A stretch of DNA of 64,000 bases, taken from NCBI GenBank assembly GCA_003451595.1, contig DMDA01000101.1:67531-131530 (forward strand). Direction: 5' to 3'. This document shows positions 43,737 to 62,717 of this stretch, piece after piece. The notes under the pieces are model-generated. The model was given only the letters and a program-made list of their open reading frames with translations. It had not been told where the DNA came from and did not search any database. The DNA comes from Chloroflexota bacterium. Its GTDB lineage: Bacteria; Chloroflexota; Anaerolineae; Caldilineales; Caldilineaceae. Numbering within the stretch: the first letter of the stretch is position 1; every line of letters starts with the position of its first letter. A program made the position numbers and the translations under genes.

Positions 43737-43751
43737 TAGGAATGCCGTGAT

Positions 43752-43801: not shown

Positions 43802-43821
43802 CAGTTCTATCCAGTTCTATC
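43802..43821 (+). repeat. Perfect 2 x 10 bp tandem (cagttctatc) in the leader, abutting the RBS
   Basis: Copies at 43802-43811 and 43812-43821 are identical. RBS aaggaagga follows at 43822-43830. Confidence 0.8.
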
Positions 43822-43843
43822 AAGGAAGGAAACCTATCAGTTC

Positions 43844-45645: not shown

Positions 45646-48600
45646 ACGTTTCACCGCAGGACTCTATCAGCGCAAATCGCTCGATCAGATCACCGCTGTC
45701 CCCGATTCCATCATCAGTGTCTACGTCATCGAAAAACATATCTGGGCGGATGATGGTGGTGAGCCGGGGCTGCTGCAGGCGCGCAAGGCGCGTCGCGCCA
45801 ATCCGCGCACGGTGGACGAATTCCTGATACAGCCGGTGCGTGGCTTTCTCAACGACATCTTTCGCCAGATGGCCGCTCCCTACGACCCGGCGCAGAAGGA
45901 ACGCGCCATCGGGCAAGGCTACTGGGTGCAGGCTGAGTTTGGCTCGGGCAAGTCGCACCTGCTTTCGTTCGTCGGTGCGTTGGCGCTGGGCGACGAGGCT
46001 GCGTGGAACATCGTCCGGCGCAAAGAACAGGACGCAGGTCAGGGCCGCCGCGAAAGCCTTTACAGCTTCTACGAAGAAGGACTTGCGCGTAAGCAGCAGA
46101 ACGGGAAGGGCATCCTGGTGGCGGTCAAAACCCTGGTCGGCGAAGGCGGCGGCGCCATTGGCATGGCGGAGCATACGCGCTCGTTGACAGAGTACATCCT
46201 CGACGCAGTGGCGGAGCAGTTCTTTGTCGAGACCGGGCGCGTGCTGCCGCTCTACCCGTCGCAGTTGCTGGTGGAACGTTTCCTGGCGACAGATGACCTG
46301 AACCGTTACCAACGCGACCTGGCCCGATTTCTGAAAGACCCTGCCTGGTTCGACGACGAAGAACAGCAGGAGCTTGCCGACTTCATGGCGGCAATGAAAT
46401 CCCCTGACCCGAACATCCAGCGCGATGTCGGCGAACGTCTCTGGCGTTTCTATGAGCAATATCTGCGCATCCGTCCCCAGATTCCCATGGAGGCGGAGCC
46501 GATTCTGGAGCACATGGTCAACCGCCTGCTCGACGAGGGCTATGCCGGGCTGTTGCTGATCCTGGATGAGATTTCGCTCTTCATGAAGGGACGCAGCGAC
46601 GCACAGCGCGTCGAAGATGAGAAGACCCTGGTGGTGCTCGCCAATCGTCTGGCTAAGGTCAAGCACCTGCCGGTCTGGGTGGTGTGCGCGGCGCAGGAGA
46701 AACTCGAGACCAAGATGGCCGGCGTCAAGAACATCCTGGCGCGTGAACGCCTCGACCCGGTGCCGCTGCTCAGCGACCCGGCGGATTACGCCACGATTGC
46801 GCTGCACCGCGTGCGCACCATCACCGAGCCGGGCGCCATCGACCCCTATTACGAAGACTACAAGCGCAGTTTCAGTTGGCCCCAGGCAATCGGAAAAGCG
46901 GAATTTGCCCGTTTCTTTCCGTTCTTCCCGCCCAGCCTCGACATCATGCGCGCCATCTCCTACAACCTGACGACAGTGCGGTCGGCGCTTTACTTCATGC
47001 TCGAAACGTTAAAAACGCAACGCAAGCGCCAGTCCCGAGAAGTGATCACGCTCTGGGCGCTCTTCGAGGACATCGTGAAATATGAGGAAGACCCATCGGG
47101 TACGACGCGCGGCGTTGCCAGCATCAAGGTCAAGTGGCCCGATGTCTGGCACGCCTATGAAACCGCGCGCGCCCAGCTCGACGCACAGGTCAGGGGGCCG
47201 CTCATGCTCTATCGTCACCGGGCGGACAAGATCATCAAGACGCTCTTTCTCTATCACATTGCCGACCGCGCGCCTAACGGACTCAGCGCCGAAGAGCTGA
47301 TGAACAGCGTTATGGAATGGCGCGACCACGACAAGGGACAGACGGCGGACCTGCAGGACAATCTTGACCACTACACGGTGTTGTGCGACCAGATCGCCCT
47401 GGAAATTGCCCAGGTGGAACGCGTCGGCGCCAACTATCGCTTCCGCGCCACCAGTGGCTACACCCAGCCGAGCGAGCATTTCCAGCGGGCGCGCGCCGAA
47501 GTCGAACAGAGCCAGCAGGAACAGCGCGTTGCCTGGGAAGCGCTGCTGGCGCTCGATGGCTGGGAAGTCTCGGCGCAATTGATGAAGTTGAACCTGGGAC
47601 AGGGCATCCGCTCCGTCTTTCGCGCCATCGCGCCCGCTGCACAGACCGATGTCACGATAAAATGGCACGGACGCGAGATCAGTGGGCGCGTCTTCATGCG
47701 CGACCTGTTGAGCATCGCACGCCAGAACCACATGCTGCCCTCGATCAACAGCACCGAAACCGGGCTTGATTTTGCCGTCTTTATTAGCTCCACGCCGGTG
47801 ACTGATGAGATCGCACAGTTGATCGCAGCCCGCCAGGAGCCACGCGCCATTTTCTGGGCGCCCGACCCCTTAAGTGCCAGCGAACGCGATCTTCTGATCG
47901 ATTTTGGCGCCTACCGTAAGCTGGTCGCCGAGTTTGCCGGTCGCGACTCGGAGGAAGCGCGCGCGGTCCTCGAATGGGTGCAGCATCGGCTGCGCGACCA
48001 GATGGGGTCGATCTATCGGATCGTACCCGGCGCTTACAGTCGCGGCGTCATGGCGGCGGTGAACCACCAGCGACTCGACATTACTGTCACCGGAGAACTG
48101 ACCGCTTTCTTGACGCCTGTCGTCGGTCAGGTGCTCGACAGCGTCTATATCAGCAGCGAGCTGGAATTCACGGCGCCGGCCCCCTTCAACGATGCCAACG
48201 CCATCAATGTCATCAACGGTATCGTCAAAGTCGGCGAGATCGAACGCGGCGCAAAACCGAACCGCGACATTTCCGCGGCGCAGAACTATGGCTTTGATCT
48301 GCGCATCATGCGCCGCCCACATGATCGCAAACTCGACCTGACCGACTGTCGCTACACGCGAGCGATCGCCACCTTCCTCGAAGATAAGCTGGGGGCGTCG
48401 GGCGCCGAAATGCCTGTCGTCACGCTCTACAAAAATTTCATGGGCATCGGCGGCCCCGGCGATGTGAACTATGGTCTCAGCAAACGCATGGTGCAGCTTT
48501 ACCTGCTTTGTCTGGTGCGTGAAGGCAAGGTGCGCGTTGGCCTCTCGCCCAGGGCGGCGCCGCTGGAGACGATCGACTATGGCAACATCGCTTCCATTGA

Positions 48601-49948
48601 CTTCAAGACCGCCGTGCTCGATGCGTTTGAGCGCGTGCAGCTGGTGGCCGCGCCGGAAGGGTGGGAATTGCTGGCGCCCTACGCTGCCGTCCTCCTCGAC
48701 GACCCATCCGTCACGACCATCAGCGATGAAGCCGACATCCAGGCTGTGATCCAACGCCTGTTGCGCCAGCGCGATACGGAACGGGCATCGCTGCGCAGCC
48801 TGACCGCCGAGCTGGCGCCGATCTTTGCCGAGCTTGGCTACAACGCCGCCGAGTTCAACGTGCGCCTTGCCCAATGGCAACGCTATCTCGATGCCCATGT
48901 CGATGTGGCGGATGCGATCACGGGGCTGCGTATTGCGCTCGACCGCGCCTTCGACTACGAAGTGTATGCGGGCGACCGCGTCGCCCCCGATGAAGTCGAC
49001 GATCTGAAGTTGCGCCGCGACGAACTGCGGCAGTTAGAGCAATTCGCCAGACATGGCAGTCAGCTCCGCGCCATTGCCCGGTATGTGCGCGCAGAATTGC
49101 CCACTGCCAGCGAGTTCGACGCGCTGCGCAATGCGTTCGCCGCTGCGCGCGCGGCGCTCGTCTCGCTGCCGACCCTCATCGCCAGCGAGGCGCGGCTGAC
49201 CAGCGAACTGCTCGACCCGATGCGCGAGGCCATCAGCAGCTATGCAGTGCGCTACTTGCAGCGCTTCGACCGCGTGACCGCGCGCGCCGAGGAGGTGCGC
49301 CAACTGCTGCACGCAGCCGAGCGCCTGCCAGACTTCGTGGTCCTGGAGACGCTGGCTGGCGTCACGCAGCTCGGCGCGGATGGCTTGCAGACTGTGCGCG
49401 CCTTTATCAACCGACAGCTTGACGACGCAGCAACGCTGAGACCGACGCGGATCACGCGCGGCGAAGCGGAGCGCGCCTTGAACGAGTGGCCGCAACCCTC
49501 TGGCTGCGAGATCACTCTAAGCAATGCCGACGAATGGATGGCGCGTCTCGACGCAGTTGCAGAGGAACTCGACGACCTGCTTCGGCAGAGCCTGCATGAG
49601 AAAGCGGCCGTGCTTGCCAGCAGCGCCCTGCGCGACCGCTTGCAGCAGCACACCGACGCGCCGTTCGTTCGCAGCCTGCTCGCGGCGCCGGACGCCGCCG
49701 CAGTTGCCGACGCGCTGCGCACCACTATCGGCGCAGCGAACAGCGCCGACCGTGCAGCGATGGCCGCCGCGCTGGCGCAGGCACTGCGCCAGGTTGTCGT
49801 GAAACGTCTGCGACTGGCAGACTTCAAGCCGACCCTGCGCACGCTCGAACGCACCGACATCGAGGACGTTGTCGCCGAATTTCGCACCTTCTTGACCAGC
49901 GCCATGACCGAAGATCGCGCAACGCACACTGTGCTCGAACTGGAGTAG
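45638..49948 (+). CDS. brxC: BrxC/PglY-type large P-loop ATPase
   Basis: 1436 aa with Walker A AEFGSGKSHLLSF near residue 100. Size and position are typical of BrxC. Confidence 0.8.
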   Translation: MAERFTAGLYQRKSLDQITAVPDSIISVYVIEKHIWADDGGEPGLLQARKARRANPRTVDEFLIQPVRGFLNDIFRQMAAPYDPAQKERAIGQGYWVQAEFGSGKSHLLSFVGALALGDEAAWNIVRRKEQDAGQGRRESLYSFYEEGLARKQQNGKGILVAVKTLVGEGGGAIGMAEHTRSLTEYILDAVAEQFFVETGRVLPLYPSQLLVERFLATDDLNRYQRDLARFLKDPAWFDDEEQQELADFMAAMKSPDPNIQRDVGERLWRFYEQYLRIRPQIPMEAEPILEHMVNRLLDEGYAGLLLILDEISLFMKGRSDAQRVEDEKTLVVLANRLAKVKHLPVWVVCAAQEKLETKMAGVKNILARERLDPVPLLSDPADYATIALHRVRTITEPGAIDPYYEDYKRSFSWPQAIGKAEFARFFPFFPPSLDIMRAISYNLTTVRSALYFMLETLKTQRKRQSREVITLWALFEDIVKYEEDPSGTTRGVASIKVKWPDVWHAYETARAQLDAQVRGPLMLYRHRADKIIKTLFLYHIADRAPNGLSAEELMNSVMEWRDHDKGQTADLQDNLDHYTVLCDQIALEIAQVERVGANYRFRATSGYTQPSEHFQRARAEVEQSQQEQRVAWEALLALDGWEVSAQLMKLNLGQGIRSVFRAIAPAAQTDVTIKWHGREISGRVFMRDLLSIARQNHMLPSINSTETGLDFAVFISSTPVTDEIAQLIAARQEPRAIFWAPDPLSASERDLLIDFGAYRKLVAEFAGRDSEEARAVLEWVQHRLRDQMGSIYRIVPGAYSRGVMAAVNHQRLDITVTGELTAFLTPVVGQVLDSVYISSELEFTAPAPFNDANAINVINGIVKVGEIERGAKPNRDISAAQNYGFDLRIMRRPHDRKLDLTDCRYTRAIATFLEDKLGASGAEMPVVTLYKNFMGIGGPGDVNYGLSKRMVQLYLLCLVREGKVRVGLSPRAAPLETIDYGNIASIDFKTAVLDAFERVQLVAAPEGWELLAPYAAVLLDDPSVTTISDEADIQAVIQRLLRQRDTERASLRSLTAELAPIFAELGYNAAEFNVRLAQWQRYLDAHVDVADAITGLRIALDRAFDYEVYAGDRVAPDEVDDLKLRRDELRQLEQFARHGSQLRAIARYVRAELPTASEFDALRNAFAAARAALVSLPTLIASEARLTSELLDPMREAISSYAVRYLQRFDRVTARAEEVRQLLHAAERLPDFVVLETLAGVTQLGADGLQTVRAFINRQLDDAATLRPTRITRGEAERALNEWPQPSGCEITLSNADEWMARLDAVAEELDDLLRQSLHEKAAVLASSALRDRLQQHTDAPFVRSLLAAPDAAAVADALRTTIGAANSADRAAMAAALAQALRQVVVKRLRLADFKPTLRTLERTDIEDVVAEFRTFLTSAMTEDRATHTVLELE

Positions 49949-49950
49949 CG

Positions 49951-52749
49951 ATGACCGCCACAATGCTGGAAGCATGGATTCTGGAGAAGATTGAGCCACA
50001 TCGCACCGCACCGTTGGTGATCGTGTGCGACCCGCAGCGCATGATTCAAAGCGGCGCCGTAGCGGTCGATGGCTGGGCGGAACGGCATGGCTTCACGGTG
50101 CTCTTCTGCACCGGTAACCTGGCGCTGCGCGAGATGTACGAGGCGATGCGCGACGACCCAGATGTGCGCACCCTGTTGGTCGACCGCAGCCGCACCCACG
50201 CCACAACGCCGCTCTTCTACCCCGATCTGGATGTTGCGGCTGGCCGGCGGCGCCAGTTGACGATAACCTTACGCGACTTTCTGATTGAGAAGACGGGCGA
50301 CCCGACTTGGCCGCAAGCTGTCAATATGCGCGAATACGCGCGCCTGCTACTCACCAATCTGCCCAACGTGCTCGCGGCGCACGCCCAGCTGCGCGCCGTG
50401 CGCGCTAGCGGTTTTTCGGACGCCGACCTGCACAAGATCATCATTGGGGCTGCGCTCGCCATCAACCCGTTCGGCAAGATCGCCGTCGGCGACATCCGGC
50501 GCATCGCACTGGAACATCACCATACGCTAGACGAACTCAAGCGCACCCTGCCGGAGGCAGCCATGGCAGCCTGGCGCAGTGCGCTGGCGAAGGTGCAAAA
50601 ACCGTTCTGTGACCTTCTGGATGGCGATGCCCCCACGATCCTGCGCGCCTTCATCCTGGCGGCACTGCTAAAACAACATGGACTTGACCATCGCCTGCTG
50701 TTGAGCAATCTCGATCCGCAGTTGCACCTCTACCGCGACATCGATCCCGCCTTCCTGGATGAAGCGCTGCACGACCAGCTCGACGCCAACCCCGATCGCG
50801 TCGTCGCCGATGTGCGTGCGGTGGAGAGCTATCTGCTGGAAAGCGCAAGCGCGTTCGTGCTCTTGCTGCGCGACCAACTTCAGCTCGACGATCCTGAACA
50901 CGCCCGCGCCGTGTTAGAGCGCGAACGTCTCTCACCACTGATCCGCAGCATGGCGCTCTTTTCGCTGTTGGTGGATCTGCTCACAACGCACAACCTCAAG
51001 TTTCATCGCGGCGTTCACCAACTGCTCCAGGCGCAAGACCGCCGCACCGACATGCTGGCGTTGCGCCGTCCTGACGAACAGTGGCTGACCCTGACCAACG
51101 TCTATGGCAAGGCAGTGACCACGTTCGAGGTGGTGACGCGGCTGGTGCAGAGCACCAGGAAACTCAAAGCCATAACGGACGACGCGCTGGAACTGGCGTT
51201 CTTTGACGAACTCTGGAACACACACCGGGTCAACCGCTTCGACTACTACGCCTCCGATCTGGAGCGCACGCTGCGCGTGGGCGCCTTGTTGCCGGTGACG
51301 CAGCGGCGGTTCTGGCCCGAGCTGGCGGTGCGCTGGGAGACTGCACGCCGCGAACTGAGCAGCGCACTCCAAGCCGCCAGCCAGATGATGGACGCAGTCA
51401 ACCATCGCTTTCAGAACCTTTACCGACGCCATTACGCCGATTGGATTCAACGCAGCGACGCCCCGGTCATCTTCACCCATCAGTTTCTCGACCGCATGCT
51501 CAAGGCGCACTGGGATGCACAGGGCGCGCGCCGAGCCGTCATCCTGATCTTCGACGGCATGCGCACCGACGCCTTCGACGAGTTTTTGCTACCCGTGCTC
51601 GAAGAGCGCTATCGAGTGATCGCCCGTCGTCCCGGCAGCGCCATTTTGCCGACAGAGACGCACCTGAGTCGCAAGGCAATTGCTGCCGGAACCCTGCCAG
51701 TACACTTCGCCGCCAACAGTGAGCTGGAACTGCTGAAACGCTGGCTTAAAACAACCTGGAATCTGTCGCCCACCTTCGAGGTGGTCAAGGACGACGACAC
51801 AGTGGCGTCGGGGATGACGGTGCGTTATCGTTCCGAGCGGCTGGAGTACATCATCTTCAACTTCACCGACAAGAATCTCCACAACAACGACCAGGAACTG
51901 GCGCTGATCTACGACACCACCGTGCGCGAAATCATCCGTCAAGACGTACGCGGCGTGCTGCGCGACCTGCCCGACGATGCCCTGATCTTCGTGACCAGCG
52001 ACCACGGCTTTGCGCCCGTCCCCCACAAAGCGCTGGCGCTGGATGCAAGCGTGGTGGCGGGGCCACAGGATGTCAAGTATCGCGTCGCGCGCACGCGCAA
52101 ACGCGTCCCCGATGCACAGCAGCCGTCCGTGGTGGAGTTCGACGCGCGCACGCTGGCGATCCCGCTGACCGGCGCCGCCGGCGCGCCCGTGCATTCGATC
52201 CTCTTTCCGCGCCCGGGGCTGGCGCTGCAGCGCCCCAACGCCGCGTTCCGCCCCGACCGCTACACCCACGGCGGGCTGAGCATGGCCGAATGCTTTGTCC
52301 CGATGGTCGTGCTGGGGCCGCCGGACGCCCAACAGCCGCTGCTGCGCATCGAGCGCTTCGTGCAGAGCGGCGCCCTGCGCGAAGGCGAGCCAGTCACGCT
52401 GGAGCTGGCGCTGGCGCCCATGCGCATCGGCGCGGAGGAGCAGGTCATCACGATTGCCTTCAGCACGCCAGATATTGCACCGCGGCGTGAGTTGTTCGCA
52501 GGCCGGCCCGTCACCTACAGCATGACCTGGATGCCGCCGCTGGGCGAGATCGACGACGCCGCACGCGCCTCTGGCGAGGTGCGCATCCCCGTGACCGCCA
52601 TCGTGACCTGGGAGGAAGGCGAACAGCGGCAGCGCGCAAGTCGCACGCTGGATGTTCGCGTCAAACTCGACCCCACGCGGCTGCGCCGCCGCGTCGATTC
52701 CAAGCTCGATCTGCTGGTGGGCAAGGTGCCGAAGGGACTGCAGGGATGA
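49951..52749 (+). CDS. pglZ: PglZ-domain (alkaline-phosphatase-fold) BREX protein
   Basis: 932 aa with PglZ-type motifs ILIFDGMRTDAF and FVTSDHGF. It starts 2 nt after the brxC stop. Confidence 0.85.
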   Translation: MTATMLEAWILEKIEPHRTAPLVIVCDPQRMIQSGAVAVDGWAERHGFTVLFCTGNLALREMYEAMRDDPDVRTLLVDRSRTHATTPLFYPDLDVAAGRRRQLTITLRDFLIEKTGDPTWPQAVNMREYARLLLTNLPNVLAAHAQLRAVRASGFSDADLHKIIIGAALAINPFGKIAVGDIRRIALEHHHTLDELKRTLPEAAMAAWRSALAKVQKPFCDLLDGDAPTILRAFILAALLKQHGLDHRLLLSNLDPQLHLYRDIDPAFLDEALHDQLDANPDRVVADVRAVESYLLESASAFVLLLRDQLQLDDPEHARAVLERERLSPLIRSMALFSLLVDLLTTHNLKFHRGVHQLLQAQDRRTDMLALRRPDEQWLTLTNVYGKAVTTFEVVTRLVQSTRKLKAITDDALELAFFDELWNTHRVNRFDYYASDLERTLRVGALLPVTQRRFWPELAVRWETARRELSSALQAASQMMDAVNHRFQNLYRRHYADWIQRSDAPVIFTHQFLDRMLKAHWDAQGARRAVILIFDGMRTDAFDEFLLPVLEERYRVIARRPGSAILPTETHLSRKAIAAGTLPVHFAANSELELLKRWLKTTWNLSPTFEVVKDDDTVASGMTVRYRSERLEYIIFNFTDKNLHNNDQELALIYDTTVREIIRQDVRGVLRDLPDDALIFVTSDHGFAPVPHKALALDASVVAGPQDVKYRVARTRKRVPDAQQPSVVEFDARTLAIPLTGAAGAPVHSILFPRPGLALQRPNAAFRPDRYTHGGLSMAECFVPMVVLGPPDAQQPLLRIERFVQSGALREGEPVTLELALAPMRIGAEEQVITIAFSTPDIAPRRELFAGRPVTYSMTWMPPLGEIDDAARASGEVRIPVTAIVTWEEGEQRQRASRTLDVRVKLDPTRLRRRVDSKLDLLVGKVPKGLQG

Positions 52750-52847
52750 GTTCGGCGATGCCCTTGGCGGCTTAGGCAGAAACGGCGTCGCCGTGTGGCA
52801 TGTGGAACAAGCACAGATGAATACGGCAAGCATTCAATGCGATTTGG

Positions 52848-52883
52848 CACGACTTCGTGGACTTCAGCTGAAGTCGTGTTTCT
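52848..52883 (+). terminator. Palindrome-rich terminator-like structure after pglZ
   Basis: cacgacttc (52848-52856) pairs with gaagtcgtg (52870-52878), followed by tttct. The perfect 16-bp palindrome gacttcagctgaagtc (52860-52875) is nested inside. Confidence 0.45.
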
Positions 52884-52937
52884 GCATACCGCGTGAACCG
52901 GCACCAGCCTCTGCACTATTGCGAAAAAAAGGCGAGG

Positions 52938-55900
52938 ATGAGAATGACCATTAACTGGCATGCGATCAGGAGTGTCAATGGGTCCCAGGCGCATGGGTTT
53001 GAAGAACTATGCGCCCAGCTTGCGCGCGCCGAATGCCCTGTCGATGCAAAATTCGTGCGAAAGGGCACTCCTGATGCTGGCGTCGAGTGTTATGTAGTGT
53101 TTCCTGACGGTAGCGAATGGGGATGGCAAGCCAAGTACTTCGACAGCGTAGGCGATGCGCAGTGGGATCAACTCGATAAGTCTGTGAAGACTGCGCTTCA
53201 TAAGCATCCGCGCCTGGTTCGCTATTACATCTGTATCCCAATCGATCTGCCCGATGCTCGCAGCGAAGGGAGACGCTCCGCACAAGATCGATGGAGTGAA
53301 CATGTTCAGAAATGGATAGGGTGGGGATGCGAACAAGGGCGTAGTCTAGAGTTCGTTTACTGGGGAAGTTCTGAATTGATCGAGCGGCTTTCGCAGCCTA
53401 GAAATATCGGTCGCCTGCGCTTCTGGTTCGATACGATTGGATTCGACCAAGAGTGGTTTGAGCGTCGCCTCAATGAGTCAATCAGTGCGGCTGGACCGCG
53501 ATATACCCCGGAGATTCACGTTGATCTGGCGATTGCTCAAGAATTTGAGACGTTTGGCCGTACAGAACGATTCGTTGACTCGCTGAAAGCAAAGGCGCGC
53601 ATTATTCGCCAGGCACTTGATCATTTGCGGTATCAAGCTAGACAGCGAGATGACTCACCTCTCGACCCGGCATTGAGTGTACTGGAGTCCTCAATCAGGA
53701 CAGTTTTGCACCAGTTTGGATTACTTGAGGTTGATGCATCGGGAGATCTTCCGTTTAGCAAGATACTTGACAGCATTGATGCAGTTGAGTCGCCACTGTG
53801 TGCGCTGGAGCAGTTGGTGATCGACAAGGAGAGCGAGCACAATGCTCAATCATCCTCACAAAAAACCTCGCAGTTTCCACACCCCTATCGAATTAACCCG
53901 TTCGAGCATTTGCGCCGCCAAATTTGGGACCTTAGACAGGCGCTAGGCGAGACGAGAAGTGTACTCAACCATGCCGTCGAAGTTGCCGGCAAAGATCTGA
54001 TGATTCTGACAGGCCAGGCTGGCACGGGCAAAACGCATCTCTTGTGCGACATTGCCAGGAATCGTATTCAAGAGGGCCGGCCCACCATTCTGTTGATGGG
54101 TCAACGCTTTGTGAATCTGAGCGATCCCTGGACGCAGGTGCTGGAACAGTGTGATCTGCGAAGGTTTTCCGCAGATGAATTTGTGGGAGCGATTGAGGCA
54201 GCCGCTCAGGTAGCGAATTGTCGGGCGCTGGTAATGATTGACGCCCTAAACGAAGGGGCGGGGAGATCAGTCTGGCCGGTGAACCTCGCTGCGTTTTTAG
54301 CGCACCTTCGCAGGTCATCCTGGATTGGCACTGTTCTTGCAGTGCGATCCTCGTTTGAAGCGCGCTTGATTCCAGAGACGACTCGCCAGCAAGCAATTTA
54401 CATCGAACATAAAGGGTTCAACGAACGCGAATACGACGCAACACATACTTTTTTCGCTCACTACGGACTGGCGTTTCCAACCACCCCGCTTTTGGCGCCC
54501 GAATTTCGCAACCCTTTGTTCCTCAAAACCCTGTGCAAGGCGCTCAATACCAAAGGCGAACGAACACTCCCGCGAGGATTTCACGGTATTACTGCCATAT
54601 TCGAGATGTATCTTGATGGGATCAATCAACGTCTGGCAAACGATCTTCGTTTCGATTCACGACATCGGCTCGTACACAGAGCGCTGAACAGTTTTGTCCA
54701 ACAGTTTGTTGAAACCAACAAACGTTGGCTTTCGTGGCAAAAAGCCGAGGCCCTGGTAAACGAACTCCTTCCAGGCCGTGACAGCGAGAGTTCTTTGTAT
54801 CAGGCACTAGTCTCTGAAGGCGTCTTGGTCGAGGAAGGCTCCCTGTCAAGTAAATCAGACGACGAAGAAGTCGTTTTCTTGGCATACGAGCGGTTTGCCG
54901 ATCACCTGATCGCTAAGTTGTTGCTGGATAGATTTCTTGATCCTGCTGAGCCTGAAGCTGCGTTTGATTCTGGTGGGGGATTGGCATATTTATGCGATCC
55001 CAAAGTATACACTCCATCTGGTCTTCTTGAAGCCCTCTGCATTCAGGTCCCAGAACGAGTTGGACGGGAATTGACCGCGCTTGCTCCGGATATTGCCAGG
55101 CGTCATTCCATTGGTGATGCTTTCCGGCAAAGTATTATCTGGCGTAGGCTAGACGCATTTTCCGCGGAAACTCGTGGGCAGATGCAGCGCTTCATCCAGA
55201 ACCGGTATCAATTAGGCGAAACCCTGGATGCCCTTCTTACCGTTGCCACCCTACCTGAACATCCGCTGAACGCAGACTACCTTGATCAACAACTGCGCCG
55301 AGATTCGATGCCTCAGCGAGACTCATGGTGGAGCACTTACCTTCATCGTGCGTGGAGCACACAAGGCGCTGTGGACAGACTGGTTGAATGGGCCTGGCAG
55401 ATAGCTCCCAATCAAAATCTTGATGGTGACTCGGTCGAACTATGCGCCGTTTCATTGGCATGGATGCTCTCCACTCCAAACCGCTTCTTGCGAGACCGAG
55501 CGACCAAGGCTCTCGTAAGCCTCCTGACAGGATACTTCAATGTAGCAGAAAAACTCGTTGCACGCTTCGCTGACGTCGACGACCTTTATATCCGTGAACG
55601 AATCTTTGCAGTTGCATATGGTATTTGCATGCGCAGCCAGAATGTCGCTGTCATCGGACGGTTAGCTAAACTGGTCTACGATCTGGTATTTGCGGCTGGT
55701 GAGCCTCCTGCCCATATCCTGTTGAGAGATTATGCACGTGGTGTGATTGAGCGTGCACTTTATCTGAAGGCTGACATTCAGGTGGATGAAACGCTCATCC
55801 GCCCACCTTACAGAAGCCATTGGCCTGCAATACCCACTGAAGATGAAATCGAGCAACTGTTTCCTAAAGATGAAGACGTCGCATGGAATAGCAGCGACAC

Positions 55901-57335
55901 AGCCTGGTCAAAGAATCGAATTCGTCGGTCGGTTATGAGCGATGACTTTGCCTGGTATGTGATCGGCACAAATTCCGGGCGAATCAACTGGACATCATTG
56001 CGCATCGACGAACCAATATCTTCTGGAGCCAGCCAGGCGCAAACCGTCGCTTTCGACGCATTAGAGTCAACGCACACTACGGCTCACATTCGCCAACTGA
56101 ACGAGTTGCTAACGGTTACAAACTCTAGCGAAGATAGAGAGCCGCAGCGATTCGACCTTTCCGTGATTCAACGCTATGTAGTCATGCGAGTATTCGATCT
56201 CGGCTGGACTACAGACCGATTCGGGGAGTTCGATCGCTTTTATATTAGGCATAGCGGCCGGGAAGCATCAAAACCTGAGCGGATGGGCAAGAAATACCAG
56301 TGGATTGCCTATCATGAGATCATGGCGCTGGTGGCTGACCACTTCCAATTCCGAGATGACCAAATCGCTGATACCTACGAGGGTCCCTGGCAGGATAGGT
56401 TCCGCGATATCGATCCATCGTGTACGTTGCGGTGCATACCTGGAGGAACATCCTGGGATTCTCATCAAACGGCGTGGTGGGCGGAAGCTCGATATGACTG
56501 GTGGACCGCTCAACCAGAACCTGTTGCCTGGACATCTGATCATAGCGATCTGCCTGCCATCAAGGATTTACTCAGAGTTGTTTGGCCCAACGACGGCTCA
56601 CAATGGCTGAACCTCTGCGGGTACTTTCACTGGAAGCGACCGACGCCAGCAGACAAAGAAGATACTGAGATAGAGCGGCGCGATCTCTGGTATATATGCA
56701 CAGGCTATCTTATCCTATTGACGGATGTCGATGCCTTTATTGAATGGTCACAAACAGTAGATTTCTGGGGACGGTGGATGCCTGAGCCTGCTCAGCTATC
56801 TGGTGTCTATCTGGGCGAGATCGGATGGTCGCCTGCATACCGATATTTCCAGCACCCATATTTCGGCGACGAGGGGTGGACAACTCCAGCCAAAGAATGC
56901 CCTGTGAAAATACGAGTGGCTGCCAGCGAATATCTGTGTGAAAGTGGTGGATTCGACTGTTCGATCGATGACACCTATAAGCTCCGAATTCCTTCAGTTG
57001 ATCTGCTTGAAGGCCTTGGTTTGAAGTGGAGCGGGCAAGCCGCTGACTATGTCAATTCTGATGGCCAGGTTTTGGTATTCGACCCAACTGCCCATTTGCC
57101 AGGTCCGGATGCCTTGCTAATACGAGAGGATTTGTTTCAAGAATATCTTGCACAAGCAGGCTTGACCATCTGTTGGGTAGTGCTAGGAGAGAAACGAGTT
57201 CTTGGTCCTGGGATCGACGCAAGCTACTTCGAATCGCTGCGACTCACCGGAACCTATACACTAAGGAATTCCGCAATCGATGGCAACATGCGATATTCGA
57301 CACCGATAGATACTTCAGGAGCAAGCCAGGATTGA
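52938..57335 (+). CDS. Giant Mrr-like PD-(D/E)xK nuclease + STAND/NACHT-like P-loop NTPase + ~900-aa C-terminal region (Avs-like antiviral STAND candidate)
   Basis: The N-terminus (GFEELCAQLA...GTPDAGVECYVV...WGWQAKYF) follows the Mrr_cat pattern FE..L / D.G.E / Q.K. Walker A is LTGQAGTGKTHLLCD and Walker B is LVMIDALNEG. No TPR or helicase motifs seen. Spot G+C is about 50-52%. RBS ggcgagg lies before ATG 52938. Confidence 0.6.
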   Translation: MRMTINWHAIRSVNGSQAHGFEELCAQLARAECPVDAKFVRKGTPDAGVECYVVFPDGSEWGWQAKYFDSVGDAQWDQLDKSVKTALHKHPRLVRYYICIPIDLPDARSEGRRSAQDRWSEHVQKWIGWGCEQGRSLEFVYWGSSELIERLSQPRNIGRLRFWFDTIGFDQEWFERRLNESISAAGPRYTPEIHVDLAIAQEFETFGRTERFVDSLKAKARIIRQALDHLRYQARQRDDSPLDPALSVLESSIRTVLHQFGLLEVDASGDLPFSKILDSIDAVESPLCALEQLVIDKESEHNAQSSSQKTSQFPHPYRINPFEHLRRQIWDLRQALGETRSVLNHAVEVAGKDLMILTGQAGTGKTHLLCDIARNRIQEGRPTILLMGQRFVNLSDPWTQVLEQCDLRRFSADEFVGAIEAAAQVANCRALVMIDALNEGAGRSVWPVNLAAFLAHLRRSSWIGTVLAVRSSFEARLIPETTRQQAIYIEHKGFNEREYDATHTFFAHYGLAFPTTPLLAPEFRNPLFLKTLCKALNTKGERTLPRGFHGITAIFEMYLDGINQRLANDLRFDSRHRLVHRALNSFVQQFVETNKRWLSWQKAEALVNELLPGRDSESSLYQALVSEGVLVEEGSLSSKSDDEEVVFLAYERFADHLIAKLLLDRFLDPAEPEAAFDSGGGLAYLCDPKVYTPSGLLEALCIQVPERVGRELTALAPDIARRHSIGDAFRQSIIWRRLDAFSAETRGQMQRFIQNRYQLGETLDALLTVATLPEHPLNADYLDQQLRRDSMPQRDSWWSTYLHRAWSTQGAVDRLVEWAWQIAPNQNLDGDSVELCAVSLAWMLSTPNRFLRDRATKALVSLLTGYFNVAEKLVARFADVDDLYIRERIFAVAYGICMRSQNVAVIGRLAKLVYDLVFAAGEPPAHILLRDYARGVIERALYLKADIQVDETLIRPPYRSHWPAIPTEDEIEQLFPKDEDVAWNSSDTAWSKNRIRRSVMSDDFAWYVIGTNSGRINWTSLRIDEPISSGASQAQTVAFDALESTHTTAHIRQLNELLTVTNSSEDREPQRFDLSVIQRYVVMRVFDLGWTTDRFGEFDRFYIRHSGREASKPERMGKKYQWIAYHEIMALVADHFQFRDDQIADTYEGPWQDRFRDIDPSCTLRCIPGGTSWDSHQTAWWAEARYDWWTAQPEPVAWTSDHSDLPAIKDLLRVVWPNDGSQWLNLCGYFHWKRPTPADKEDTEIERRDLWYICTGYLILLTDVDAFIEWSQTVDFWGRWMPEPAQLSGVYLGEIGWSPAYRYFQHPYFGDEGWTTPAKECPVKIRVAASEYLCESGGFDCSIDDTYKLRIPSVDLLEGLGLKWSGQAADYVNSDGQVLVFDPTAHLPGPDALLIREDLFQEYLAQAGLTICWVVLGEKRVLGPGIDASYFESLRLTGTYTLRNSAIDGNMRYSTPIDTSGASQD

Positions 57336-57414
57336 AGCCTTGCACTTTTAATCATATTTTCCAAGCCGGATTGTGGAGTCATTTCGACCGTTTGAATTAG
57401 GAGCATGCATCCCA

Positions 57415-59958
57415 ATGCCCAAACGCAAACCCACCACCCACCAACCCACCCTCTACCACAAACCCGTGCCCACCATGCCGGAGGGCTACTACTCCTCCGG
57501 CCCCAACCCGAACCTGGGCAAATTCGTCGCCGAGCACGCCAAGCCCTATGACCCGGCTACCGACACGTACAACGTGCCGCCCTTCGACAAGCCGATCACC
57601 ACGACCAAGGCGACGGCGATCTACAACATGCACACCTACTGGTCGAAGAAGCCCCACGACGCCATCCGCCAGTACATCCGCCACTACACCCAGCCGGGCG
57701 ACCTGGTGCTCGACCCCTTCTGCGGCAGCGGCGGCACGGCGCTGGCAGCGCTGATGGAGGGCCGCGCCGCCATCGCCATCGACCTCTCGCCGGCGGCCAC
57801 CTTCATTACCAAGAACTACTGCACGCCGGTGGACGTGGCTGAGCTGGAGCGCGCCTTTGCCGAGCTGGAGGCGAAGGTCAAGCCGGAGATGGAGTGGCTC
57901 TATGAGACGCGCTGCGACCGCTGCGACGGCCGCGCGCTGACGAGCTACACCGTCTATTCGCAGGTCTTTCGCTGTGAGCGCTGCCTGGCGGAGGTTCCGC
58001 TCTTCGACTGTGTGGAGGTGCAAAGCACGACGCTGGCCGGCAAGCCCAAGACGATCAGCGCCTGCCCGCACTGCTACGCCGCCGGCGTGGTCGAGGAGAT
58101 CAGCACGCGCAGCAGCGCCAAGCTGGGCGCCGTGCCCGTGCTGGTGAGCTACGAATGCCAGGAAGGCTGCAAGCCCAAGCGCGGCGAGCGCCGCCACAAT
58201 GACCCCGACGCCAAGAAGCGGCGCTTTTTCGAGGAATACGACCTGGGCAAGCTGGCGGAGATCGAGGCAAAACCGATCCCCTACTGGACGCCGCCGCACC
58301 GCATGATGAACGTCGCATCAGACACCGAACCGTGGGGCGACGAATGGCGACCGGGGCGCAACTTCCGCACGGTGGCGGAGTTGTTCACGAAGCGGAATTT
58401 GTGGGCGCTGGCGTTGTTGGCACATTTCATCCGTCGACTCAACTATAGTAATGGAAACGTGCAAGATCAGCTTCGATTGGCATTCAGCGGGACAATCTTG
58501 AATGTGTCAAGAATGCTCAAACAAAGTGAGCAGTGGGGCGGTGCGCTTCAGATGGGCACCTACTATATGCCGCAGATCAGCCGTGAGTCACCTGTGTTCA
58601 TTGGTTTTGACTACAAGTACCGAGATGTGAAACGGGGACTTGATGCTATTGGTTCGATTATTACAGAACCGAATGTTCTCATCTCCACTCAATCTGCGAC
58701 TGCACTCGGCGAGATCGATTCTGATAGCATCGACTACATATTCACCGACCCGCCCTACGCTGACAAAGTGCAGTATGGTGAGTTGAACTTTATTTGGGAA
58801 GCATGGCTCGACTTGCAGCCTCGCTGGCACGATGCCGAAATCATCGTAAATAAGACACGCGGTCTGTCTGACACCGAATGGGCAAACTCGATGAGTAACG
58901 CTCTGCGCGAGTGTTTCCGAGTATTGAAGCCTAATCGGTGGCTATCACTGTGCTATCACGATACCAGCGAGGGAACATGGGCATTAGTCCAAGATATAAT
59001 GGCTGACATAGGGTTTATTCCTGAAACTATCGGAGATACCCTGTTCATCGATACCGGTCAGAAATCCTACAATCAGTTGATGGCCGACAAAGTCACCAAG
59101 CGCGACCTGGTGATCAACTTCCGCAAGCCGCGCCCCGGCGAGACTGGCGCGGTCGTGCTCACCGGCGACGAGGATGCCGCCGCCTTCGCCGACAAGGCGC
59201 GCGCCATCCTGGTCGAGGCGCTGGAAGCGCACCCCGGCAGCCCCGCCGACCGCCTCTACGACATCCTCGTCTCGCGCATGGTGCGCCGCGGCGAGTTCGA
59301 GCGCCACAACTTCCAGGCGCTGCTCGAATCGGTGGCCGAACCGGTGCGCGAGGCGCTGATGCAGGAACTCTTCACCCCGCGCCCGCCTGATCTCTTTGGC
59401 CAGCACGCGCAGGTGCGCTGGTATCTGCGCGCCACCGCCGACGACCTGGACGACGCCGAACGCACGCGCGAGGAAGCCGCCGCCGCGCGGCTGGAAGCCT
59501 ATATGCGCAGCGCGATCGACTACACTGCGCCCGCCGGCGCCGACGCGGGCGTCCACTACTCCGACCTCTTCGAGCACTACCTGCCCGTCAAGGAAAAGCC
59601 GCGGCGTCTGCTGCAGGAGTGGCTGCCCGAATTCTTCTTCAAGACCGCCGACGGCGCCTGGCGGCCCCCGCTCACCGCCGAGGAGCGGGCGCAGAAGCAG
59701 GCATTGCGCGCCGGCGGCAGCCTGCGCCGCATCAAGCGCTTCGTCCACGCGCTGGAGCAGGGCGTCCCGCCCGCGCCGCGCGACCTGCCCGCGTCGCTCG
59801 CCGACGCCGCCGACTGGATCCGCCAGTGTCGTCGCGCCGGCCTCTATCGCTACGGGCGGGCGATCTACGAACGCGGCGGCTTCGACTTCGCCAACCTCCA
59901 CGCCGAGGCGCAGGCCGAGGTAGAGGAGGATTATCAGATCTGCGTACGGCGGAGCTAA
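57415..59958 (+). CDS. DNA methyltransferase with motif I before motif IV and an intervening Cys4 Zn-ribbon (PglXI-like/COG1743-like rather than canonical PglX)
   Basis: AdoMet motif VLDPFCGSGGTALAA (57712 onward), Cys clusters CDRCDG...CERC...CPHC (about 57913-58077), and catalytic FTDPPY (58741-58758). 847 aa. RBS aggag lies 12 nt before ATG 57415. Confidence 0.75.
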   Translation: MPKRKPTTHQPTLYHKPVPTMPEGYYSSGPNPNLGKFVAEHAKPYDPATDTYNVPPFDKPITTTKATAIYNMHTYWSKKPHDAIRQYIRHYTQPGDLVLDPFCGSGGTALAALMEGRAAIAIDLSPAATFITKNYCTPVDVAELERAFAELEAKVKPEMEWLYETRCDRCDGRALTSYTVYSQVFRCERCLAEVPLFDCVEVQSTTLAGKPKTISACPHCYAAGVVEEISTRSSAKLGAVPVLVSYECQEGCKPKRGERRHNDPDAKKRRFFEEYDLGKLAEIEAKPIPYWTPPHRMMNVASDTEPWGDEWRPGRNFRTVAELFTKRNLWALALLAHFIRRLNYSNGNVQDQLRLAFSGTILNVSRMLKQSEQWGGALQMGTYYMPQISRESPVFIGFDYKYRDVKRGLDAIGSIITEPNVLISTQSATALGEIDSDSIDYIFTDPPYADKVQYGELNFIWEAWLDLQPRWHDAEIIVNKTRGLSDTEWANSMSNALRECFRVLKPNRWLSLCYHDTSEGTWALVQDIMADIGFIPETIGDTLFIDTGQKSYNQLMADKVTKRDLVINFRKPRPGETGAVVLTGDEDAAAFADKARAILVEALEAHPGSPADRLYDILVSRMVRRGEFERHNFQALLESVAEPVREALMQELFTPRPPDLFGQHAQVRWYLRATADDLDDAERTREEAAAARLEAYMRSAIDYTAPAGADAGVHYSDLFEHYLPVKEKPRRLLQEWLPEFFFKTADGAWRPPLTAEERAQKQALRAGGSLRRIKRFVHALEQGVPPAPRDLPASLADAADWIRQCRRAGLYRYGRAIYERGGFDFANLHAEAQAEVEEDYQICVRRS

Positions 59959-59996
59959 GCAGCCTCATAACACCCGGTCTGATCGCTGCAAACGGT

Positions 59997-60044
59997 TTGC
60001 TTGCTTGCGCTCCGTTCCAGTATACTGCGTACAATGTGTACGCA
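59997..60044 (+). promoter_or_regulatory. TA promoter TTGCTT-N18-TATACT with overlapping operator palindrome
   Basis: ttgctt at 59997-60002 and tatact at 60021-60026. The perfect inverted repeat is tgcgtaca (60026-60033), atg, tgtacgca (60037-60044). RBS aggagga follows. Confidence 0.6.
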
Positions 60045-60062
60045 AATTGCCAGGAGGATGCC

Positions 60063-60356
60063 ATGACCATCACAACGTGGGACAGCCGGGCAGCACGCGA
60101 GAACTGGCGCAAGCTGCTCGATGCGGCGACAACCGGTCGCAGCGACATCGTCATCACGCGCCACGGCCAGCCGGCTGCGGCGCTGATCGCGTATGAGGAT
60201 TATCTGGCGCTGCAAGAGGAGCTGGACGAACTGCGCGCCGCGCGTCGCGCCGAAGAAACCGTGGCCGCCTGGCGCGCCGCCCCGTCCATGGCGCGCCCCT
60301 GGACGGAGGTCGAAGCCGAGCTGGTTGCCCGGGATCTGCTTGATGCCGAACCCTGA
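60063..60356 (+). CDS. Phd/YefM-family antitoxin
   Basis: 97 aa. The N-terminus (TWDSRAARENWRKLLDAATTGRSDIVITRHGQPAAALIAYEDYLAL) is typical of Phd/YefM. Confidence 0.8.
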   Translation: MTITTWDSRAARENWRKLLDAATTGRSDIVITRHGQPAAALIAYEDYLALQEELDELRAARRAEETVAAWRAAPSMARPWTEVEAELVARDLLDAEP

Positions 60357-60624
60357 GCCGCCGCGCTATGTCGTGCAGATCATCAAGCGCGAGCAGAAGG
60401 TGCTCGAACGCCTGCCGCGCGATCTCCTGCAGCGCATTCGGCGCGCGATCAACAGCCTGGCCGATCATCCGAGGCCAGCGGGCAGTAAAAAGCTGGCGGG
60501 CGTCGAGAATTACCACCGCCTGCGCGTCGGCGACTGGCGGATCACCTATGCGATCTTCGACGACACCCTGATTGTCCTAGTCGTCGAAGTCGCGCTGCAT
60601 GGGGATGCGTATCTGCATCTATGA
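60343..60624 (+). CDS. RelE/ParE-family toxin
   Basis: 93 aa, overlapping the antitoxin by 14 nt. KKLAGVENYHRLRVGDWRITYAIFDDTLIVLVVEV matches the RelE/ParE core. Confidence 0.8.
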   Translation: MPNPEPPRYVVQIIKREQKVLERLPRDLLQRIRRAINSLADHPRPAGSKKLAGVENYHRLRVGDWRITYAIFDDTLIVLVVEVALHGDAYLHL

Positions 60625-60727
60625 TGTCCTCACAGCCCGACATTCGCGACAGCGCCTGCCTGACCTGCGCTGCATGTCATCTGGCAAACGGTGTCTTCAA
60701 GTGTTGTAGCCTGACAGGAGCGTGTTC

Positions 60728-61843
60728 ATGCGGATTCGAGAAATAGAGTTTTCCGACTTTCGAGCCTTTCGCGGTCAGCGACGGGTGTCGTTTGTCGATC
60801 CGATCGGCGCCAGGCCGCGCCCGCTCACGATCCTGGCCGGTTCCAATGGCAGCGGCAAGACGACCATCTTCAACGTGATCGAAGCGCTGTTGGCATTCGT
60901 CTTGGAGCCAGATCAACCCGCAGCGCTGCTCGACGAGATCAGCGAAACAGGTCTCGTGTGCATGTCCGTCGAACTCGACCCGCTCGACATCGGCAACGGC
61001 AGTGACCAGCGTGCGCTGGTTGACCTGCCAGAGATCATGCATATTGCCGTCGGGCGTCGAGATCTGGCGCCGGCGCAGCCGGAGCAGGTCTGGCCCAATT
61101 TGTTCTGCCGGCTCGTGCAGCGCAATGTGCAGGGACGCCCCTTTGTGCGCAAGACGCCGCTGGCAGAGCGGCTGCGCCGCGCCGTTTCGCAGATGCATCA
61201 AGGGCAGCATCCGCTCTACGGCGGCTACCTCTATTTTCCGCATGATCGCCAGTTGCGCACATCGCACGGCGGGCCAATTGAACCCCCGCCGGAAGAACGT
61301 CCATGGCGCTTCCGGCTGGCGCCCAACGAACGCTGGCAGGGCAGCCTAGAACAACTGTGGGTCTGGCAGAACTATCTCGATCTGGAGCAGGGAAACCAGA
61401 AGGGGGAGCGCCTGGCGTCATTTGTCAAGACGTTGGAGTCTCTGCTCGGCGAGCATCGCCCGATCACGGTGCGCGAAGGCAGGGCGACGGTGCCGGCAGC
61501 CTGGAGCCGCGGCAGCGAAAAATCTGTGCTGTTGCGGCTGGATCAGTTGCCCTCCGGTGAACAGCAGTGTCTGCTCCTCTTTGGCGAGCTGGCACGGCGC
61601 CGGCGCGAAGGCGCCGTGATCGCCATCGACGAAGTGGAGAACAGCCTGCATCCCACGCTGCAGCGCCTGGTGATGTGGAATCTGACGCGAATCGCGCGTG
61701 AGTGGGATGCACAGGTGATTGTCGCCACGCATTCATGGGAGATCATCAACAGCGTGCGCAGCGACGCGTTTGTGAATCTGGACTATCCAGAGGATCGCTT
61801 CGATCTACCGGTCGCGGCAGTAGCTGCAGGAGTCGATGCGTGA
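60728..61843 (+). CDS. ariA: ABC/SMC-type ATPase, AriA-like (PARIS-like system component)
   Basis: IREIEFSDFRAFRG N-terminus, Walker A LAGSNGSGKTT, signature LPSGEQQ, Walker B VIAIDEVENSLHP, H-loop VATHS. RBS aggag lies before ATG 60728. Confidence 0.65.
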   Translation: MRIREIEFSDFRAFRGQRRVSFVDPIGARPRPLTILAGSNGSGKTTIFNVIEALLAFVLEPDQPAALLDEISETGLVCMSVELDPLDIGNGSDQRALVDLPEIMHIAVGRRDLAPAQPEQVWPNLFCRLVQRNVQGRPFVRKTPLAERLRRAVSQMHQGQHPLYGGYLYFPHDRQLRTSHGGPIEPPPEERPWRFRLAPNERWQGSLEQLWVWQNYLDLEQGNQKGERLASFVKTLESLLGEHRPITVREGRATVPAAWSRGSEKSVLLRLDQLPSGEQQCLLLFGELARRRREGAVIAIDEVENSLHPTLQRLVMWNLTRIAREWDAQVIVATHSWEIINSVRSDAFVNLDYPEDRFDLPVAAVAAGVDA

Positions 61844-62697
61844 GTCGCTACCCTTCGTTGACGGACATCGAAATCAGGTGGCGTTCTGCTGGCGGAGTCT
61901 GCGTCATCGTCGAAGGTGAGACGGAACAGGATGATGTCTGGTTCTACAACCATTGGTTTGGCCACCTGGCTCGCCAAGTCACATTCTTTGCCCAAGATGG
62001 TTGGGGCGCGGTTGTTACTGCTGTGACTGAGCTGCGCCAGCGGTATGGGAACGACAACGTGTTTGGCATCGTCGACCGTGACTTTGAGCCGGTCGTCGTG
62101 GTCGATCCACTTCCGTCCGACGGAATCCTGCGTACGTCCAAATACACGCTCGAGAATTATTTGCTCAATCCAGACTGCTGGGAGGCAGTTGTACGCCCCA
62201 AACTGCAGCGCGATCCTGTCGCCGGTTGGATGTCAAGAACCGAGATCGAGGCAACGCTGAAGTCGTACTACATGGAATGTTTGCAATTATCCGCGTTCAA
62301 CTGGGTTTTGCGTACAATCCGCGTGCAGATGCCCAATCTCTTTGTACAACTGCCGCTGGCGGAGCAGAGATATCGGGAACATCATGACTCTTTGCGTCAT
62401 GTCGGCGACGTATATACGCACTGGCAACGCGTGCAGACTTCGATTGGCGCGACGGACGATTTGGCAGATCTCTATCAGCAGCGACTCACGGCTCTACAGC
62501 GGATGTCAACCGAACAGTTGGCCGAAGTCGTCTCCGGGAAGTATGTATTCAACCTGCTGAGGAACAACTTTCCAGTACGCTATCATGGCAGAAAAGCCTG
62601 GGATAGCCTTCTGAGCGAGTATCTGTATCATTGTCCAGATGCACCTCACGACATCGCTGCTCTCGTGAACGTCATCTTGGCTGCGTCCAAACCATAA
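61840..62697 (+). CDS. ariB: DUF4435-type Toprim-like protein, AriB-like (PARIS-like system component)
   Basis: [26 protein letters not shown] and [10 protein letters not shown] match the DUF4435 motifs as I remember them. GTG 61840 overlaps the ATPase stop (GTGA). Confidence 0.65.
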
Positions 62698-62717
62698 TCC
62701 ATCTTCGAGTTCATCTG

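Follow-up and report, generated by a model that had tools for sequence, protein, structure and literature searches.

In the 64,000-nucleotide stretch of Chloroflexota DNA that makes up the whole of the analysed window (contig DMDA01000101.1), a BREX-like operon carries one giant gene of low G+C content between its pglZ gene and its methyltransferase gene, pglXI. What does this gene encode, and how did it come to lie there? A preliminary description of the window had read the product as an Mrr-like nuclease joined to a STAND NTPase and a large sensor, an Avs-like antiviral protein recently acquired by the operon, and had named as the alternative the restriction half of a cassette with the adjacent methyltransferase. 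From the analysis reported here it is very probable that the gene, called avs2 in what follows, encodes a single-protein Avs2 antiviral sensor that was acquired horizontally as a one-gene cassette and is lodged in the BREX-like operon.

Avs2 family membership and domain structure

The open reading frame (ORF) runs without interruption on the + strand over 52893..57335. From the ATG at 52938 it encodes 1465 aa, the form from which all residues are numbered here; an alternative ATG at 52944, which lies 6 nt 3' of a Shine-Dalgarno-like site (GGCGAGG) and was picked by the gene callers on the source contigs, would give 1463 aa. The giant low-G+C frame is intact as first described, and every motif then quoted could be located in it, namely GFEEL (20-24), PDAGVEC (45-51), WQAKYF (63-68), GQAGTGKTHLL (359-369) and LVMIDALNEG (431-440). 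The identical protein is found in three independent assemblies, a Joint Genome Institute (JGI) biogas-reactor metagenome contig (176.9 kb), the metagenome-assembled genome (MAG) GCA_012840685.1 and an SRA assembly.

The product scores 1375.9 bits against the NCBIfam equivalog NF041813 (AVAST type 2 anti-phage system protein Avs2), for which the curated cut-off is 1000, and 706-1652 bits against six PADLOC Avs2 models, the best of which (PDLC02164, 1651.8 bits) aligns from residue 3, so that the N-terminal domain is already within the model. The cryo-EM structure of EcAvs2 (9O4E), to which the product is about 35-40% identical, is matched with an E value of 9e-190 over residues 166-1025 and 1069-1452; the first of these segments aligns with residues 162-1003 of the chain (E 1e-134) and the second gives an E value of 8e-53. 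A large protein database holds 1825 relatives, several of them named Avs2 by NCBI, and the best 117 full-length ones are 52-58% identical to the avs2 product; conservation of single residues was read from an alignment of these 117 homologues with the product (118 sequences). By these matches the gene is unambiguously a member of the Avs2 (AVAST type 2) family. The Avs type first proposed is confirmed and can be specified as Avs2, while the suggested novelty is not, the family being already known. Avs4 was tried as the identity of the whole protein and rejected, NF041815 (cut-off 1500) giving only 24 bits, confined to the first ~100 aa, and the PADLOC Avs4 model 11.4 bits.

Searches with the single sequence of the N-terminal domain were empty, phmmer against the PDB returning a chance match only, and a profile and a structure model were therefore needed. 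A profile built from 21 homologues matches residues 14-98 of EcAvs4 (8DGF) with an E value of 0.0066. The alignment pairs FE..C, G(V/I)E and GWQ(A/S)K in the two proteins and sets the QxK motif opposite Q63 and K65 of EcAvs4, reportedly the catalytic ones (Gao et al. 2022). The NCBIfam Avs4 model also matches the effector domain weakly through its own N-terminus (E 5e-6). In the AlphaFold2 (AF2) model of the domain, with a predicted local distance difference test score (pLDDT) of 82.3, helices at 17-32 and 73-89 and strands at 38-42, 49-54, 60-65 and 93-99 form the alpha-beta-beta-beta-alpha-beta core of PD-(D/E)xK nucleases. The top Foldseek match of this model in the PDB is again the EcAvs4 nuclease, 8DGF (E 9.5e-5, probability 1.0), followed by EndoMS/NucS, EcoO109I and Cap4. 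Residues E22, D46, E50, Q64 and K66 are invariant in the 118 sequences, and the QxK variant is reported to be the signature of Mrr (Bujnicki and Rychlewski 2001). By fold, motif and Avs4 similarity the assignment of the effector as an Mrr-like PD-(D/E)xK nuclease of predicted activity holds. The profile match, the fold, the Foldseek comparison that had been proposed as a check and the invariant residues all bear out the Mrr-like N-terminus of the preliminary description, and the match to EcAvs4 agrees with its statement that Avs4 carries such an effector.

The nuclease domain is of the same type as that of EcAvs4, with the motif E...(D/S)GxE...WQxK aligned, but the sensor and NTPase of EcAvs4 belong to a different Avs family; Avs4 reportedly senses the portal protein and not terminase (Gao et al. 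2022). With EcAvs2 the relation is reversed. The first ~165 aa of the avs2 product do not align with EcAvs2, which carries an unrelated, uncharacterised effector domain, whereas the remainder follows it from the helical extension through the NTPase and TPR domain to the C-terminal sensor, with the Walker A and B motifs in register.

The helical extension is the least conserved structured part of the protein (median identity 0.39), and a Pfam scan of residues 181-351 at E values up to 10 gave nothing useful. In EcAvs2 the same element contributes to the terminase interface (PMC13601566). The NTPase module aligns column for column with the Walker A motif of EcAvs2 (K348) and with its Walker B region, and K365, D435, N438 and E439 are invariant among the 118 sequences; Pfam gives weak P-loop matches here to AAA_22, AAA_16 and NACHT. 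The P-loop and NACHT-style Walker B noted at first sight are those of an Avs2-type STAND NTPase. The ~900 aa that follow, in which no motif had been named and which had been thought a possible new sensor family, are by homology the WHD/TPR region and C-terminal sensor of an Avs2 protein, both of which have been described for EcAvs2 (PMC13601566). The C-terminal 430 aa alone match 9O4E with an E value of 9e-54, and because homology to the EcAvs2 TPR domain and sensor extends throughout the region, it is not a new family.

The pglZ/pglXI junction

The base composition of avs2 is foreign to the window, as the composition check suggested with the first reading was to show. Its G+C content is 51.6%, even along the whole gene, and its G+C content at third codon positions (GC3) is 0.509, about 7 standard deviations under the background of the 17 other window genes (mean G+C 62.2 ± 2.4%, GC3 0.761 ± 0.036). 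For the BrxC-like, PglZ and PglXI genes on either side the G+C content is 62.4%, 63.8% and 62.9% respectively, with GC3 of 0.77-0.81. The contrast first estimated from single lines, about 50-52% against about 70%, is therefore right for avs2 and too steep for the flanks, which lie at 62-64% and reach 0.71 in 600-nt windows in a few places. Antisense ORFs of at least 150 aa overlie the BrxC-like, PglZ and PglXI genes, while none of that length occurs within 52995..57396, a difference that had also been remarked upon and is confirmed by the ORF list.

For comparison, 51 related loci were fetched through PglZ (39-96% identical), 19 from genomes and 32 from metagenomes. They share a cassette of RadC_N-like, BrxF-like, BrxC-like, PglXI, PglZ and BrxL genes, in which PglXI precedes PglZ in most loci and PglZ precedes PglXI in the clade closest to the window. 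The genome collection contains no close relative of the locus, its best PglZ identity being 58%, and the loci nearest in their flanking BREX genes are L014 and L016, which suggest Chloroflexota/Anaerolineae (loci are cited by such numbers where they must be told apart); a 90% relative, L050, came from the metagenome scan. Avs2 is present in none of the 51 loci. At the position that it occupies in the window the related loci have either a short gap or other genes. PglZ and PglXI are 18 bp apart in L058, L028 and L029 and 157 bp apart in L014, and L058 is compact throughout, its spacers measuring 18 bp and 6 bp. Elsewhere the junction holds an ATPase_2/DUF234 protein, a DUF2283 protein and an IS200-like transposase (L016), a DUF2283 protein (L030), a 23S-IVP/bAvd-like protein (L031) or an 8.4-kb block (L032). 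Loci of the other gene order have VapBC-like pairs, Uma2 or a serine recombinase between PglXI and PglZ, and in L028 a GmrSD enzyme lies between PglXI and BrxL.

The limits of the inserted DNA can be placed closely. L050, the closest relative, is 90% identical to the window in nucleotide sequence through the 3' part of pglZ, but the homology ends at window position 52756, 7 nt past the pglZ stop codon, where a DUF433/DUF5615 pair follows and avs2 is absent. On the other side, homology of L031 to pglXI begins again only at 57475. As L050 diverges and L031 resumes at these points, the inserted segment would be approximately 52757-57414, one gene with short flanks. The ~70 nt before the start of avs2 can be partly aligned with the DNA upstream of its nearest homologue, L023, which is 79% identical by tblastn and 86% identical in a MAFFT alignment. 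Scans of the whole window for tRNA and Rfam landmarks of integration found none.

L050 is itself a decayed copy of the BREX-like operon. Its positions 1777-4009 (FWWL01022077.1) correspond to window positions 42846-43902 and 51564-52756 with 85-90% nucleotide identity, a deletion of about 7.7 kb, reaching from the RadC_N-like gene into the middle of pglZ, having joined the ADP-ribosylglycohydrolase region to the 3' part of pglZ.

On its composition and its absence from related loci, avs2 is horizontally acquired cargo inside the BREX-like operon, in keeping with the earlier reading of a recently acquired Avs-type sensor inside BREX. A one-gene cassette of ~4.66 kb (~52757-57414) would have arrived by horizontal transfer in the pglZ/pglXI junction, and the intergenic junctions of the operon would seem to be landing sites for varied accessory defence genes. 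The L023 copy also has a low G+C content (0.519) beside genes of 0.607, and its site, which adjoins a HEC-01 system, is unrelated, from which it would appear that the avs2 lineage entered at least two higher-G+C genomes at different places. The window provides a clean natural case of a single-gene Avs2 cassette in a biogas-reactor bacterium, with empty and differently filled junctions available for comparison.

Table 1. Positions of avs2, its domains and motifs, and the flanking features of the operon in the window. Domain boundaries marked approximate are so in the analysis.
Feature	Position	Strand	Basis or remark
pglZ, upstream flank, core cassette gene	49951..52749	+	Pfam, PADLOC PglZ; NCBIfam BREX-3 PglZ weak
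Upstream non-coding part of the inserted cassette	52757..52937	+	End of L050 homology, L023 alignment
Small hairpin in the upstream non-coding part	52860-52875	+	Terminator-like sites no more frequent than in shuffled sequence
avs2 gene	52938..57335	+	1465 aa; matches to NF041813, PADLOC PDLC02164, PDB 9O4E
PD-(D/E)xK Mrr-like, Avs4-type nuclease domain (predicted), aa 1-165	52938..53432	+	Profile, AF2, Foldseek
Putative catalytic residues	E22/E23; D46 53073-53075; E50; Q64-A-K66 53127-53135	+	Alignment
Helical extension between effector and NTPase, aa 166-340 (approximate)	53433..53957	+	Aligns with EcAvs2 162 to ~330
STAND NTPase module, aa ~341-640 (approximate)	53958..54857	+	Aligned to EcAvs2
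Walker A GQAGTGKTHLL, K365	54012-54044	+	Aligned with EcAvs2 K348
Walker B LVMIDALNEG, D435	54228-54257	+	Aligned with EcAvs2 Walker B region
Helical TPR-like sensor part, aa ~641-1025 (approximate)	54858..56012	+	Continuous with first 9O4E stretch
Poorly conserved short linker, aa 1026-1068	56013..56141	+	118-sequence alignment, 9O4E
Beta-rich C-terminal sensor, aa 1069-1465 and stop	56142..57335	+	Aligns with 9O4E 1093-1479
A+T-rich spacer, avs2 stop to pglXI start	57336..57414	+	Sequence; L031 homology
pglXI-like N6-adenine methyltransferase, downstream flank, core gene	57415..59958	+	PADLOC PglXI, 354 bits

Proposed action and competing readings

For the trigger, oligomerisation, nuclease activity and phenotype of the avs2 product, what follows is carried over by homology with EcAvs2, KpAvs2, SeAvs3 and EcAvs4. 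In a cell free of infection the protein would stay an inactive monomer. The large terminase subunit made by an infecting tailed phage, or a protein that imitates the ATPase fold of terminase, would act as the trigger and be clamped by the TPR domain and C-terminal sensor together with the helical extension. The ATP-bound STAND NTPase would then drive tetramerisation, gathering four of the N-terminal Mrr-like PD-(D/E)xK nuclease domains, and the clustered nucleases would degrade DNA indiscriminately, leading to death or arrest of the cell before phage release (abortive infection). EcAvs2 tetramerises on the terminase ATPase domain and loses defence on mutation of the Walker A lysine, K348A (Evans et al., Nat Commun 2026, PMC13601566). 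KpAvs2, which carries an Mrr-family nuclease, degrades DNA non-specifically and defends by abortive infection, and mutation of either its catalytic lysine (K71A) or its Walker A lysine (K337A) abolishes its defence (Béchon et al., Nat Commun 2024, PMC11564622).

Compared by its published description, KpAvs2 has the same parts as the avs2 product, an Mrr-family PD-(D/E)xK nuclease, a STAND NTPase and an Avs2-type sensor (PMC11564622), but works alongside a radical-SAM protein and Avap2, the other two products of its three-gene operon, whereas avs2 stands alone between pglZ and pglXI. The architecture is therefore already known, and in KpAvs2 experimentally characterised, and avs2 adds one environmental member to a family that runs to thousands, for which a structure has been solved and relatives have been characterised.

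Four observations weigh against a horizontally acquired Avs2 sensor with the properties just described. No Pfam model, Mrr_cat (PF04471) included, matches the N-terminal 180 aa at E values up to 10, and for this reason the term Mrr-like rests on the fold and the similarity to the Avs4 nuclease. The insertion is marked by no gene of a mobile element and by neither a target-site duplication nor a terminal repeat, the only repeats found around it being short chance ones. The linker preceding the C-terminal sensor is shortened compared with both EcAvs2 and the 117 homologues. Finally, of the nine contacts to terminase or bridging ATP reported for EcAvs2, five are substituted in the avs2 product (T1128, R1130, W1266, E1364 and E1462) and four are kept (D981, R1132, E1362 and E1444), among them D981, a bridging-ATP residue in the TPR-like part.

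The last two of these bear on what the sensor recognises. In 9O4E 90 residues separate the two aligned stretches as against 44 in the avs2 product, making the linker ~46 aa shorter than that of EcAvs2. It is ~80-90 aa shorter than in the 117 homologues, which have a charged, probably helical insert at this site; the gaps after residue 1033 total ~78 columns in the 118-sequence alignment. The short linker is also present in L023. As no more than about half of these EcAvs2 contacts are retained, the trigger could differ, and the natural trigger might be something other than the large terminase, such as a Ksap-like small protein or another ATPase-fold phage protein. The altered linker next to the sensor points the same way, as does the behaviour of the relatives, since KpAvs2 is triggered in vivo mainly by Ksap1 and Ksap2 and EcAvs2 also answers to Ksap1 and vs.8 (PMC11564622, PMC13601566). 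However, recognition by EcAvs2 is redundant and shape-based, tolerating single contact mutations and sensing terminases of less than 10% identity (PMC13601566), and the TPR domain and C-terminal sensor of the avs2 product are conserved over their full length. A trigger of this other kind seems to us possible but unlikely, and it is in any case a variation within the reading as an Avs2 sensor and not separate from it. The divergent sequence, short linker and altered contacts could help to define which sensor positions set the range of triggers.

The Avs2 sensor reading leaves the position of the gene as that of cargo. It may instead be a selected one, in which avs2 is a co-transcribed backup arm of the BREX-like system, an abortive-infection layer that would fire on a late phage protein only once methylation-based exclusion has failed. 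The gene is co-oriented with the operon, the spacers are short (188 nt upstream and 79 nt downstream), and a scan for promoters and terminators around avs2 gave counts no higher than in shuffled sequence, leaving no convincing candidate for either; a 2026 survey argues that BREX-embedded effectors are recurrent backup modules (PMC12839542). Further support comes from the genomic contexts of this Avs2 subfamily, which recurs beside BREX and type I restriction-modification (R-M). Twelve contexts were compared, the window and those of 11 other homologues, a small and non-random sample. Four are BREX-type loci (the window, L025, L060 and L061), the homologue lying directly after pglZ-brxL of the BREX locus in L025 and L060 and directly after a PglX/MmeI-type methyltransferase in L061. 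Three are type I R-M loci (L063, L026 and L064), in two of which, L026 and L064, the homologue abuts the R-M genes. The remaining contexts have toxin-antitoxin genes, HEC-01, Druantia genes or insertion sequence (IS) elements. Defence genes are present in all 11 sampled homologue contexts, and the clustering of homologues in defence islands, put forward earlier as a check on the Avs reading, is borne out to that extent. In L063 (553-13991) the homologue, P0016, is inside the type I R-M operon, overlapping the end of hsdS and followed by a Schlafen/AlbA_2 gene and hsdR.

Against such a backup role, Avs2 is found in none of the 51 loci of this BREX-like family, whose junctions hold unrelated cargo or nothing, and Avs2 proteins function as single genes once moved to E. 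coli (PMC13601566, PMC11564622). The composition of avs2 shows no co-evolution with the operon, the ~70 nt of upstream DNA in common with the L023 copy suggests that the gene brings its own 5' region, and the contexts on which recurrence is based are few and not randomly drawn. We consider a co-transcribed backup arm rather improbable. The broader proposition would be that Mrr-type Avs2 genes nest preferentially in or against methylation-based defence operons, avs2 being here the co-transcribed, terminase-triggered suicide backup of a BrxL-containing, type-3-like BREX variant; this too we hold to be rather improbable. Were such preferential nesting true, the position of avs2 would reflect selected functional layering and not a neutral landing site.

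That the transferred gene is a decaying, non-functional remnant is highly improbable. The linker is shortened relative to the homologues, the codon usage is not ameliorated and decay is seen in the related L050 locus, with its 7.7-kb deletion, but the ORF is intact over 1465 codons and the catalytic and nucleotide-binding residues are the invariant ones. The ratio of non-synonymous to synonymous substitution rates (dN/dS) between avs2 and the L023 homologue, which has the same short linker, is 0.21. At the level of sequence the gene is shown here to be under purifying selection with its catalytic motifs intact, and for these reasons a dead relic is unlikely.

The alternative raised in the preliminary description, that avs2 and the co-oriented N6-adenine methyltransferase gene that it adjoins form an R-M-like cassette in which avs2 supplies the restriction endonuclease, can appeal to the PD-(D/E)xK fold of the N-terminus but is rejected as scarcely credible because the gene of the PglXI-like enzyme is a core gene found together with BrxC-like, PglZ and BrxL genes in dozens of loci that lack Avs2, the composition of the two genes differs (GC3 0.51 for avs2 and 0.81 for pglXI) and homologues of avs2 occur without such a methyltransferase in L023, L024 and L065; the rest of the protein, moreover, is an Avs2 protein sensor and not a DNA-recognition module.

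The host cassette and its other cargo

The cassette around avs2 has the core of a BREX system, with a PglZ, a BrxC-type ATPase and a PglX-type methyltransferase, all co-oriented. On the source contig the order of genes is ADP-ribosylglycohydrolase, RadC_N-like, BrxF-like, BrxC-like (1436 aa), PglZ, Avs2 and the PglXI-like methyltransferase, followed by Phd, ParE, an AAA_21 ATPase, a DUF4435 protein (the last two AriA/AriB-like) and BrxL. PglZ is matched by Pfam with 28.6 bits (cut-off 25), DUF6079/BrxC-PglY_N with 35.6 bits (cut-off 23) and BrxL by PADLOC with 560 bits. The gene set fits none of the six canonical BREX types. Compared with type 3 (BrxF, BrxC, PglXI, BrxHII, PglZ, BrxA) it has BrxF-like and PglXI-like genes, which are hallmarks of that type, but BrxL in place of BrxHII and BrxA, and a RadC_N-like gene stands first; the NCBIfam BREX type-3 models fall far under their cut-offs. 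According to the 2026 survey BrxL is absent from type 3 BREX (PMC12839542). No account of a variant of this kind came up in a full-text literature search for the combination of BrxF, BrxL and PglXI, and the BrxF-like/PglXI-like/BrxL cassette may be an undescribed BREX subtype. This host cassette may be more interesting than avs2 itself.

The six genes of the cassette lie at 43844-52749 and 57415-64000, brxL continuing beyond the end of the window; the full gene is seen at L020:19775-21805. Loci with the cassette, 51 in all, come from metagenomes and from MAGs of Planctomycetota, Acidobacteriota and Chloroflexota. BrxL is well conserved, its identity being 70-84% among the loci of the genome collection and reaching 90% within a short segment of one metagenome locus.

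The nesting of defence genes within BREX operons has been described before, BrxU and PARIS being among the examples, and like avs2 the accessory genes surveyed (BrxU/GmrSD, PARIS, toxin-antitoxin pairs) are self-contained and co-oriented between core BREX genes (PMC12839542). Unlike the surveyed loci, the host cassette of avs2 is outside the six canonical types, and Avs proteins are not mentioned in that survey of BREX-embedded defence genes (PMC12839542).

Two more modules are embedded between pglXI and brxL in the window. A PARIS-like pair at 60728-61843 and 61840-62697, the second embedded defence module, is made up of an AAA_21/AAA_15 ATPase (86 bits against PADLOC AriA) and a DUF4435 protein (40 bits against PADLOC AriB) and is present in none of the related loci. 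The third cargo module is an overlapping Phd/YefM antitoxin and ParE toxin pair at 60063-60356 and 60343-60624. Upstream of the island a second STAND-type protein of 946 aa is encoded at 39937-42777, with HTH_31, a weak NB-ARC/AAA_22 P-loop and TPR_12 repeats; its ORF is also of lower G+C content (0.569) and is followed by the ADP-ribosylglycohydrolase gene at 42858-43736.

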